In this document: piece after piece, positions 5,507 to 7,961 of the stretch
Numbering within the stretch: position 1 is the first letter of the stretch
Layout of the letters: each line of letters opens with the position of its first letter
Assembly: GCF_001677475.2 (NCBI RefSeq)
Contig: NZ_CP012498.1
Strand: one strand, 5' to 3'
DNA length: 64,000 nucleotides
Source: Escherichia coli
GTDB taxonomy: Bacteria > Pseudomonadota > Gammaproteobacteria > Enterobacterales > Enterobacteriaceae
Program-made: the position numbers and the translations under genes
The notes under the pieces: generated by a model
The model's input: the letters and a program-made list of their open reading frames with translations, nothing else
Told to the model about the DNA's origin: nothing
The model's database searches: none

Positions 5507-7489
5507 ATGACTAAAATTATACCTATAGATGACGATTATTATAAATACCAGGACAAACATTTTATTCGGTTGCATGGTTGTAATGTGTTCTTATTTCCAC
5601 TTGAAATTAAGGGAAGAGAGTCACTATCTGACATATATAACTATGAAATAAAATGTTTAAGTAAAGCTGACCATAACTCTTTGGATAAGTTACACGGTAT
5701 GCGTCTGAGTTGTGAGATTGGAGAACAAGGTAATCCGTTACCTTCACGATTCATTCATGGTCTGGTCACAAAAGTAATATATAATTATGATAACAGCATA
5801 CAGCATACCTGTATTATCATGTTACAACCAGAAATTGCCGAGTTAGCAACCAGTAAAAGAACTAGGATATGGTCAAATATAACACCATCAGATATTGTAA
5901 CCACAATATTAAAAGACAGTTTTTTAAATACTCCACAAATCATGTTATATAAAGAGCAAAGTTTGATAGAGTATAAGATTCAGTACCAGGAATCTGATCT
6001 GAATTTTATTAATAGAGTTTTGTCTGATGCTGGAATTTACTACTTCTTTGTTCATAAGAAAGACAAACATATTATGACATTAGCAGATGATCCAGCATCT
6101 CATCCTAACGCATCCTATGATAAACTGGAGCTCTTACCTGGTGAAAATCTTAGGGAGTCGCATCAGGGATACATCACTGAATGGTCTGTCACAGAAAATC
6201 TTAAATGCCCTGCTGTGATATTTTCAGGTTATAATGAGAGTAATGTTAATGAAATCACTATAAAATCAGAAAGTAAAGTGAATGATGTTAAATCCAGCAA
6301 TGTGATTTATGAATGTATTATTCCTGAGAAAAAACGTGAGTTGATACAAAAACGTGCCGCAACTATGATGGCATCATGTGATGGTGAAATTAAAACTTGG
6401 TCTGGAAAAACAAATTCATGGTGGTTGTCATGTGGTGAACGTTTTTGTCTGAATAAAAATCATTACAGAATTACTTCATTATATCTTAATGCATTAAACA
6501 ATGATGCTGAGGATACTGGATATTGTAATTGTGAATTTCGTGCTTCGGATAATAAAAATTCGCTTAGTTTTAAAGGAGAATTAAATTCCCCGGTTATTCC
6601 AGGTGTCTTACTTGCCAGAGTGGTTGGTCCTAACTCTGAAGAATATTATACAGATAAATTAGGGCGTGTAAAAATTAGATTTCTCTGGGGGGAAATGTCC
6701 ACGTCAGGTACAGAGGAAAGCTCCTGTTGGGTCCGTGTATCTCAGGCATGGTCCGGGGATGGTTTCGGTAGTCAGTTTATTCCTCGTATTGGCAGTGAGG
6801 TTCTGGTTAGTTTTATACAGGGTAATCCTGACTATCCAATTGTTGTTGGAACAGTGTATAATGGTCAGAATAAACCGCCTTTTTCTCTGCCTGAGAATAA
6901 TTGTAAGTCTGGATTTGTTACCCGTAGTGTTAAGAATGGAAAAAAGGGAGAGGGTCATCAACTTGTTTTTGATGATAAAGAAAATGAGGAAAAAACCATA
7001 TTAACTTCTTCTGGTGATTACCACCTGACAGTAAAGAAGGATATGATCAGCAATATTAATAACTCAATGTCATTAACTGTTGCAAAAGGTCGTAATTCTG
7101 AAATAAAAAAAGGGAATGATAAGCTTATTCTTAAAGAAGGCAACTTGCATAATGATGTGCATGGAAATATTGATATAAAAGTGTCAGATGGAGATTATAG
7201 CCTTAATGTGACTGGGGGCGGTGGTAGTTTTATTACTGATGAAAATCTTATATTTGAATCAACACAATCAATAAAAATAAAAGTGGGGGCAAATGAGATA
7301 ACTATATCCACATCAGGGATAAGTATAAAAGCCGCAAAAATTACCGTTGAAGGGCAAGCGTCTGCAGAGGTTAAAGCAGCCACACTTAAACTTGAAGGTC
7401 AGGCTATTTCTGAAGTAAAAGGCACTATGTTGACGCTTCAGGGATCTGCAATAACGCAGATAAAAGGAGGAATAGTGAATATTGGATAA
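5507..7489 (+). CDS. vgrG: VgrG (TssI) spike protein, core-only with no C-terminal effector extension
   Basis: 660 aa; gp27/gp5-like region with motif SQFIPRIGSEVLVSFIQGNPDYPIVVGTVYNGQNKPPF. Confidence 0.9.
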   Translation: MTKIIPIDDDYYKYQDKHFIRLHGCNVFLFPLEIKGRESLSDIYNYEIKCLSKADHNSLDKLHGMRLSCEIGEQGNPLPSRFIHGLVTKVIYNYDNSIQHTCIIMLQPEIAELATSKRTRIWSNITPSDIVTTILKDSFLNTPQIMLYKEQSLIEYKIQYQESDLNFINRVLSDAGIYYFFVHKKDKHIMTLADDPASHPNASYDKLELLPGENLRESHQGYITEWSVTENLKCPAVIFSGYNESNVNEITIKSESKVNDVKSSNVIYECIIPEKKRELIQKRAATMMASCDGEIKTWSGKTNSWWLSCGERFCLNKNHYRITSLYLNALNNDAEDTGYCNCEFRASDNKNSLSFKGELNSPVIPGVLLARVVGPNSEEYYTDKLGRVKIRFLWGEMSTSGTEESSCWVRVSQAWSGDGFGSQFIPRIGSEVLVSFIQGNPDYPIVVGTVYNGQNKPPFSLPENNCKSGFVTRSVKNGKKGEGHQLVFDDKENEEKTILTSSGDYHLTVKKDMISNINNSMSLTVAKGRNSEIKKGNDKLILKEGNLHNDVHGNIDIKVSDGDYSLNVTGGGGSFITDENLIFESTQSIKIKVGANEITISTSGISIKAAKITVEGQASAEVKAATLKLEGQAISEVKGTMLTLQGSAITQIKGGIVNIG

Positions 7490-7499
7490 AGGATTTCAT

Positions 7500-7961
7500 A
7501 TGACAGATTCTAAAAACAACTCTGCTCTGGAGTTTAATAAGATTGTTGAGCAAATGCTGCTAAAAGGAAAATGGCAGGATGCACTTAATTTCTGGATAGA
7601 GAATACAGATTCGTTAACATTAATTAAATGGCTGGCGCAATTTATCTCTCAGTCATCTTCTGAAGAAGACTCAGTGCTTTTACAATCCATTGTAAAATGG
7701 AAGGAAGGAGATGAAGAACAACGGTGGGAAATATTTAAAAACGCCGAGTCTGCAGGATTTTCTACTCAGTCAGGAGCCCTGGGGTTATCGTTATTTATAT
7801 CACAAGGAAGTTTGAGTCCGACTTCATATCCACCAGTCCATGCACCGTCATGTTCAGAAAAAAAAATTATTTATGGAATATTAATGAATCAATCGTGTAA
7901 ATGTTATGATACACCTGTCGAAGGGATTGTTTTTCTTTTTCAGCATTGGTGTAATAGTTAA
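7500..7961 (+). CDS. Hypothetical T6SS-associated protein (candidate adaptor, accessory or small effector); alternative start at 7482 overlaps vgrG
   Basis: ORF 7482..7961 lies between vgrG and PAAR on the same strand; AAAGGA Shine-Dalgarno before the ATG at 7500; no recognisable family. Confidence 0.45.
   Translation: MTDSKNNSALEFNKIVEQMLLKGKWQDALNFWIENTDSLTLIKWLAQFISQSSSEEDSVLLQSIVKWKEGDEEQRWEIFKNAESAGFSTQSGALGLSLFISQGSLSPTSYPPVHAPSCSEKKIIYGILMNQSCKCYDTPVEGIVFLFQHWCNS

Follow-up and report, generated by a model that had tools for sequence, protein, structure and literature searches.

Gene content of the locus and gene model

We analyzed a stretch of 64,000 nucleotides (nt) from Escherichia coli (contig NZ_CP012498.1 of assembly GCF_001677475.2; hereafter the window) and focused on a small gene wedged between vgrG and a PAAR gene within a type VI secretion system (T6SS) cluster. 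The window is part of a large plasmid; positions 7300-8400 were 99.8% identical to plasmids of about 225-242 kb, e.g. pCFSAN004179G and pCFSAN004181P. Its first 20 kb hold the T6SS cluster, which is low in GC (32-43% in 2-kb windows) and is encoded on the + strand in the order tssB(partial)-tssC-(hcp position)-tssE-tssF-tssG-vgrG-DUF6931-PAAR-tssA-tssJ-tssK-(IS110 remnant)-tssL-tssM-clpV, where DUF6931 denotes the gene under study. An original prediction, made from the sequence alone, had described this gene as the open reading frame (ORF) 7482 (TTG)..7961, overlapping the vgrG stop and without an assignable family. Coordinates of the features are given in Table 1.

The ORF is a real gene, since homologues were found at 24-99% identity, a Pfam family was matched (see below), and the ratio of nonsynonymous to synonymous substitution rates (dN/dS) was 0.18-0.23 in three comparisons with 83-86% identical E. 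coli variants. The gene is thus under purifying selection. In the same comparison, dN/dS was 0.22-0.23 for vgrG, 0.12-0.18 for tssA/G/J, and 0.04-0.14 for PAAR. In every E. coli record among those listed, the gene was intact and annotated as DUF6931.

The predicted coordinates needed correction. The start is the ATG at 7500, which gives a protein of 153 amino acids (aa); this ATG and an upstream AAGGA, 6 nt 5′ of it, were kept in all four E. coli variants compared (83-100% identical), in agreement with the good ribosome-binding site that the original prediction had noted for an alternative start there. The TTG at 7482 was rejected as a start because the codon is not conserved (TCG in the plasmid pHNSHP24-2, locus L024), and the RefSeq coding sequence WP_000132334.1 (153 aa, "DUF6931 family protein") also begins at the ATG. 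As the start lies 10 nt past the vgrG stop, the two genes do not overlap, contrary to what had been proposed.

Table 1 Features at the vgrG-DUF6931-PAAR locus (positions in the window)
Feature	Coordinates	Strand	Evidence
vgrG (TssI spike, 660 aa)	5507..7489	+	NCBIfam TIGR03361, E 8.9e-106
In-frame upstream extension, outside the gene; holds the vgrG stop (7487-7489) and the AAGGA ribosome-binding site (7489-7493)	7482..7499	+	TTG not conserved; ATG conserved; RefSeq start
DUF6931 family gene, 153 aa, isoelectric point (pI) 4.87, eight helices	7500..7961	+	Pfam PF22011; RefSeq WP_000132334.1; AlphaFold2 model; dN/dS
Best-conserved segment, residues 72-118 (helices 5 and 6 with a long ordered loop)	7713..7853	+	Alignment A1; AlphaFold2 model
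Bare PAAR spike-tip gene, 99 aa, without toxin domain, directly 3′ of the DUF6931 gene	7977..8276	+	NCBIfam T6SS_PAAR_dom

Family, conserved surface, and predicted fold

Contrary to the original view that no family could be assigned, the protein matched Pfam DUF6931 (PF22011) with an E-value of 1.4e-11 (45.1 bits; residues 17-128 against model positions 3-118 of 145). By sequence it is a plain member of this catalogued family, under the same name in RefSeq, and it shares with DUF6931/PF22011 the same motif (R75, G86, G103-S104), fold, and gene neighborhood. Besides DUF6931, the Pfam-A scan at E<=10 returned only a chance match to Adipogenin. The hidden Markov model searches that had been suggested, against the adaptor families DUF4123, DUF1795, and DUF2169 and against toxin domains, thus gave no match even at this threshold. 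NCBIfam, PADLOC, and PHROGs contained no family for the protein, and the NCBIfam models of the core T6SS components (TssA-TssM) did not match; CecR at E 0.013, the only match, was noise. Against PDB chains at E<=10, both a single-sequence phmmer search and an hmmsearch with the family profile gave only chance matches to designed repeat proteins, and Foldseek found nothing in the PDB below E 1.8. A recognizable toxin or enzyme domain was absent from the matches in Pfam, NCBIfam, PADLOC, PHROGs, and PDB alike.

A phmmer search, run exhaustively against 1.84 billion representative proteins, yielded 40 matches. Two of these, P0037 (1964 aa) and P0042 (3409 aa), were considered as multi-domain relatives and rejected as repeat-driven false matches (eukaryotic PAN-like and Bacteroidetes Fn3 repeats, respectively). 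In an alignment of 30 sequences (A1), residues R75, G86, G103, and S104 were invariant and F79, L96, F99, and P107 near-invariant. The resulting motif reads RWxIF..AE..GF.TP.G.L.LS.FWS.GSMSP...EPVYP, or, in a looser form, R-W-x-I-F...A-E..G-F.T..G.L.L-S.F...G-S-[ML]-S-P...P-V. Conservation per segment reached 0.54-0.62 at residues 72-118, compared with 0.24-0.40 elsewhere.

AlphaFold2 confidently modeled the protein as an all-helical bundle, with a mean predicted local distance difference test score (pLDDT) of 94.9 and a predicted template modeling score (pTM) of 0.87. The conserved loop of 17 residues at 102-118 was modeled as ordered (pLDDT 94-98). In this model, residues 72-118 form a candidate partner-binding surface. 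Members of the family among the AFDB50 clusters of the AlphaFold database (AFDB) superposed on the model at template modeling (TM) scores of 0.7-0.94. DUF416 (YjaG-like; PDB 3F7C and 2Q9R), for which no T6SS link was found, resembles the protein at 7% identity, probably as a generic helical bundle.

The family is acidic (median pI 5.15) and its members are small, about 150-200 aa; neither the protein studied here nor the family members had a hydrophobic or membrane segment. Two forms can be told apart. The short form of 145-170 aa, found in E. coli and other Enterobacterales, does not have the N-terminal extension of ~30-40 residues seen in the long form (185-200 aa). Environmental metagenomes commonly contain the latter (248 clusters), and every cluster among those listed was a stand-alone protein. 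The literature searched for DUF6931, PF22011, and four RefSeq accessions held no experimental work on or function for the family, apart from a passing mention in a Pseudovibrio preprint.

Gene neighborhood across bacteria

We read 28 resolvable gene contexts, which came from E. coli, 15 other Enterobacterales genomes, and environmental contigs. All of them, exceptions included, were T6SS loci. DUF6931 lay directly 3′ of vgrG in 26 of the 28, from Enterobacterales to alphaproteobacteria and Planctomycetes, and directly 5′ of a PAAR gene in 23. These positions support its earlier nomination as the in-cluster candidate for a spike-associated factor. A pattern scan of genome contigs with a narrower alignment (A2) retrieved only Enterobacterales, so the taxonomic breadth is that seen in metagenomic contigs and AFDB.

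The order tssC-hcp-tssEFG-vgrG-DUF6931-PAAR-tssAJKLM, as in the window, was common to all 15 Enterobacterales genome loci (Rahnella, Ewingella, Tatumella, Kosakonia, Citrobacter, Enterobacter, Erwinia, Yersinia, Cedecea, Photorhabdus, and a soil metagenome-assembled genome) and to the metagenomic contig L002. In 14 of the genome loci, tblastn detected DUF6931 (the Photorhabdus copy went undetected), at 28-35% identity to the protein of the window. Across the loci that share the gene order, identity was 66-77% for PAAR, 62-82% for tssC, 33-41% for vgrG, 26-38% for tssE, and 24-40% for tssL. DUF6931 thus diverges at the rate of a core gene and is a fixed member of the cluster. In most loci, 8-10 nt separated the vgrG stop from the DUF6931 start. 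Among the 14 Enterobacterales genome loci measured, 12 showed a 1-nt overlap between the DUF6931 stop and the PAAR start.

Departures from this arrangement were of four kinds: (i) tssB comes after DUF6931 in L004; (ii) one orphan vgrG-DUF6931 pair is without PAAR; (iii) one DUF6931 copy in L027 lies two genes past a vgrG; and (iv) DUF6931 is divergent from tssG in L028. Orphan vgrG islands also hold a DUF6931 copy. In L027, each of two vgrG genes is paired with a DUF6931 paralogue of its own, and the paralogues are 51% identical to each other. As is the case for adaptors, there is one DUF6931 per VgrG. In this metagenomic contig (2794..11550), the first spike module consists of a vgrG with a C-terminal extension, a gene for a HEAT protein, a gene for a 299-aa protein, and DUF6931; the second consists of vgrG, DUF6931, and a PAAR~ATLF metalloprotease gene, with a Ser/Thr kinase gene and an FHA gene nearby. 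This tandem double spike provides a natural system for asking whether each DUF6931 fits its own VgrG.

In an alignment of the C-termini of DUF6931-linked VgrG proteins, the VgrG of the window stopped bluntly at its beta-helix (...IKGGIVNIG) and had no extension beyond it. The PAAR protein of the window matched NCBIfam T6SS_PAAR_dom weakly (E 1.2e-7, below the curated cutoff), and its homologue in L005 carries PF05488. Its closest solved relative was SalCis10 (E 1.4e-33), the tip protein of the extracellular contractile injection system (eCIS) of Salmonella salamae; a T6SS PAAR (8gra) was far more distant (E 2.8e-15). From these matches, the PAAR subfamily of the window appears to be common to T6SS and eCIS spikes. 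DUF6931 and PAAR, joined by a GS30 linker into a single chain and co-folded with 19 paired sequences, reached a pTM of 0.53 with the PAAR half unfolded (pLDDT ~30), a result that bears neither way on binding.

The partner PAAR was bare (96-99 aa) in 21 of 24 loci and fused to a toxin in the other three, twice to Peptidase_M91 and once to ATLF. These toxin domains are unrelated. Each M91 locus has a separate gene further downstream that could encode an immunity protein. The range of partners bears on a label used in passing by the Pseudovibrio preprint, according to which DUF6931 would be an SsdAI-like immunity protein neutralizing a toxin of this T6SS. SsdAI, the immunity protein of the Pseudomonas syringae T6SS deaminase SsdA (PDB 7JTU chain B), shares 6% identity with DUF6931 and shows no sequence or profile relation and no Foldseek match to it; 7JTU_B was absent from the matches to all PDB chains (E<=10) of both phmmer and the family-profile hmmsearch, and what speaks for an SsdAI-like protein is a grey-zone fold match. 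Unlike the SsdAI gene, that of DUF6931 has no cognate deaminase: its neighbors here are vgrG and the bare PAAR gene, with no cognate toxin, and elsewhere the PAAR carries none, M91, or ATLF, so that toxin partners differ between loci. We consider an immunity function highly unlikely.

Links to FHA proteins

In several lineages, DUF6931 was joined to FHA (Fha/TagH) proteins or encoded beside them. In L021, an FHA-DUF6931 fusion lies between vgrG and PAAR, and at least 10 FHA-labelled AFDB50 clusters have the DUF6931 fold. L029 has the order vgrG-DUF6931-Fha/TagH-PAAR with a canonical Fha/TagH, in which the DUF6931 stop and the Fha start overlap (ATGA) and PpkA, PppA, and TagF adjoin. L030/31 is an orphan vgrG-DUF6931-PAAR-FHA island beside a kinase. 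Judging from such junctions, DUF6931 appears to be translationally coupled to PAAR or to Fha. T6SS assembly is nucleated by this cytoplasmic FHA module. In A. citrulli, Fha condensates recruit VgrG and chaperones (bioRxiv 10.1101/2023.12.21.572528).

These neighbors can be taken to mean that DUF6931 is a post-translational regulator, holding back the spike or PAAR or gating firing instead of promoting assembly. The FHA fusions and the association with FHA, Ser/Thr kinase, phosphatase, and TagF genes in L029, L030/31, and L027 speak for such a role. The Enterobacterales clusters with DUF6931, however, contain no kinase, phosphatase, Fha, or TagF genes, and sequence alone cannot tell a negative from a positive role. 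We regard a regulator of this kind as improbable.

A proposed role at the VgrG-PAAR spike

With moderate confidence, we propose that DUF6931 is a small, acidic, soluble, helical, cytoplasmic accessory ("Tag"-type) or adaptor protein whose target is the VgrG-PAAR module. Core-like evolution, coupling to PAAR or Fha, chaperone-like properties, and FHA fusions argue for an accessory role. Whereas immunity proteins and dedicated effector chaperones go with one particular toxin, DUF6931 tracks VgrG and PAAR whatever toxin is attached, or none, and a spike accessory fits better. Its task could be that of a PAAR holdase or loader and of a bridge to the assembly platform. PAAR proteins reportedly are insoluble without a VgrG-like partner, as Shneider and colleagues are said to have found in 2013.

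Under this proposal, DUF6931 would be made together with VgrG and PAAR and would bind the VgrG tip and/or free PAAR through the surface of helix 5, helix 6, and the loop (residues 72-118). Binding would keep PAAR competent for loading and help to bring the VgrG-PAAR spike to the baseplate, or to seat it there, during assembly. In those lineages with a threonine-phosphorylation pathway, where DUF6931 is fused to or beside Fha/TagH, it would tie the spike to Fha-driven assembly. It would act on the PAAR/VgrG module and on no particular toxin, and would presumably stay in the producing cell.

The order vgrG-adaptor-(PAAR) effector is a hallmark of T6SS adaptors. The adaptor families DUF4123 (Tap-1/TEC), DUF1795 (Eag), and DUF2169 resemble DUF6931 in the order vgrG-small gene-(PAAR), in being small and acidic with one copy per VgrG module, and in some PAAR-toxin partners. 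In contrast to them, DUF6931 has mostly bare PAAR partners, is fixed in the core cluster and not confined to variable effector islands, and shows no sequence match to these families. The FHA fusions seen for DUF6931 are, to our knowledge, not known in DUF4123, DUF1795, or DUF2169. A positional parallel is found in the T6SS-5 of Burkholderia, where the conserved non-core proteins TagA/B-5, TagB-5, and TagC-5 are encoded between vgrG-5 and the bare PAAR gene TagD-5, i.e. likewise wedged between vgrG and an unarmed PAAR in the core cluster (PMC6335564). Hcp-5 secretion depends on TagA/B-5, which is not counted among the effectors (PMC6335564). Homology of the three to DUF6931 was rejected, as they are pentapeptide-repeat and DUF3540 proteins and only analogous.

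The original prediction had offered either an adaptor or a small cargo effector. The first option is supported by gene context in general terms, although not as a member of the three known adaptor families. For the second, DUF6931 would be small, conserved cargo, either an effector or a translocated factor, carried non-covalently by the VgrG-PAAR spike; its site of action would be the target cell, probably a eukaryotic one. Cargo effectors, too, are typically encoded beside vgrG and PAAR, and the invariant R75 and S104 together with the ordered conserved loop could form an active site. The lack of an adjacent immunity gene can be read in two ways: it counts against an effector, yet anti-eukaryotic effectors need none, and the toxins fused to PAAR in related loci (Peptidase_M91 and ATLF) are of the anti-eukaryotic type. 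On the other hand, no toxin or enzyme family was recognized in Pfam, NCBIfam, PADLOC, or PDB. The gene occupies the same site in every cluster of the subtype with core-like divergence, whereas effectors are usually variable; the single copy per VgrG and the apparent translational coupling to PAAR or Fha are adaptor-like. Mostly bare PAAR partners and recurrent fusion to FHA, a cytoplasmic phospho-threonine-binding domain, also disfavor cargo, and we consider this alternative unlikely.

The original prediction was to fall if profile searches revealed a conserved structural component. By that measure, the evidence leans toward a conserved component of an accessory, not necessarily structural, kind and away from variable cargo.

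Several observations weigh against a spike accessory or adaptor. No PAAR gene follows DUF6931 in L004, in L028, or in the P0060 contig, and we know of no need of a bare PAAR for an adaptor. Neither a VgrG-DUF6931 nor a DUF6931-PAAR fusion was present among the homology matches listed. The closest solved fold is that of an immunity protein, SsdAI, at the grey-zone level. Finally, since the E. coli cluster is without Fha, the FHA link cannot apply to it directly.

More tentatively, DUF6931 could represent a widespread, unrecognized class of spike adaptors, separate from DUF4123, DUF1795, and DUF2169, that binds the PAAR/VgrG tip itself and no toxin and physically couples the spike to Fha-dependent assembly, with a fold that may share its origin with SsdAI-type immunity proteins. 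Such a class would explain the FHA fusions of Planctomycetes and the order vgrG-DUF6931-fha-PAAR in other bacteria.

Other features of the T6SS cluster and the plasmid

The cluster was present in 98 of 5,426 complete E. coli genomes (1.8%) and was plasmid-borne in about half of them. As this frequency fits the prevalence of 1.3% reported for the rare E. coli T6SS3/T6SS-i4b subclass (PMC12282107), the cluster is probably the rare E. coli T6SS-3 (i4b), an assignment drawn from prevalence and not from phylogeny.

In the hcp position, i.e. the gap between tssC and tssE, lies an ORF of 168 aa (1837..2343, + strand) whose RefSeq counterpart is a "hypothetical protein". Pfam (E<=10), NCBIfam, PHROGs, and the PDB sequences gave no match to it; its positional counterpart in L002 has no Pfam match on record. 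According to the Pseudovibrio preprint, the DUF6931-bearing T6SS described there lacks a typical hcp. The ORF may encode a very divergent tube protein. At the protein level, window positions 349..7489 were a mosaic relative to pCFSAN004179G (L001). Identity was 98% for tssC and 98-100% from DUF6931 to clpV, compared with 56% for the protein in the hcp position, 83% for tssE, 90% for tssG, 92.5% for tssF, and 95% for vgrG. The low identity from the hcp position to vgrG in otherwise near-identical plasmids suggests that a recombination tract swapped the tube and baseplate genes.

Between tssK and tssL (11287..13316), a truncated transposase of the IS110 insertion sequence (IS) family (ORF 11804..12595; NCBIfam E 2.5e-50, N-terminal 200 residues only) splits the operon. 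The same site holds IS110 remnants flanking a frameshifted IS3 gene in pCFSAN004179G and pCFSAN004181P, whereas no IS is present there in E. coli M18. Polar effects of the insertion on tssL, tssM, and clpV are possible, and the cluster of this plasmid may therefore be non-functional.

Past clpV and IS debris lie three genes (21946..24617, + strand). They encode (i) a VasL/ImpA_N-like protein of 361 aa; (ii) a protein of 213 aa with a weak match to EspJ/AvrPphF-family ADP-ribosyltransferases (E 3.7e-7; RefSeq "AvrPphF family type III effector"); and (iii) an unassigned ORF of 202 aa. The EspJ/AvrPphF-like protein is a better candidate than DUF6931 for an effector of this T6SS.

The base composition of the window changes sharply at about its middle. 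Positions 1..30000, comprising the T6SS island and an IS-rich flank, have 32-45% GC and a steadily positive GC skew; positions 30000..64000 have 44-54% GC, save for a segment of 35% GC at 46-48 kb. Such a break would fit an island that the plasmid acquired horizontally.

Implications for T6SS spike assembly

For the window itself the outcome is modest, as the protein is an ordinary member of a catalogued family, with very little chance of being a new toxin. Little is understood so far of the steps by which the VgrG-PAAR spike is put together, capped, and passed to the baseplate, or of the way in which Fha is tied to the secreted parts. With its gene directly 3′ of vgrG in several phyla and its recurrent junctions to FHA proteins, DUF6931 offers a concrete and cheap target for the study of these steps.

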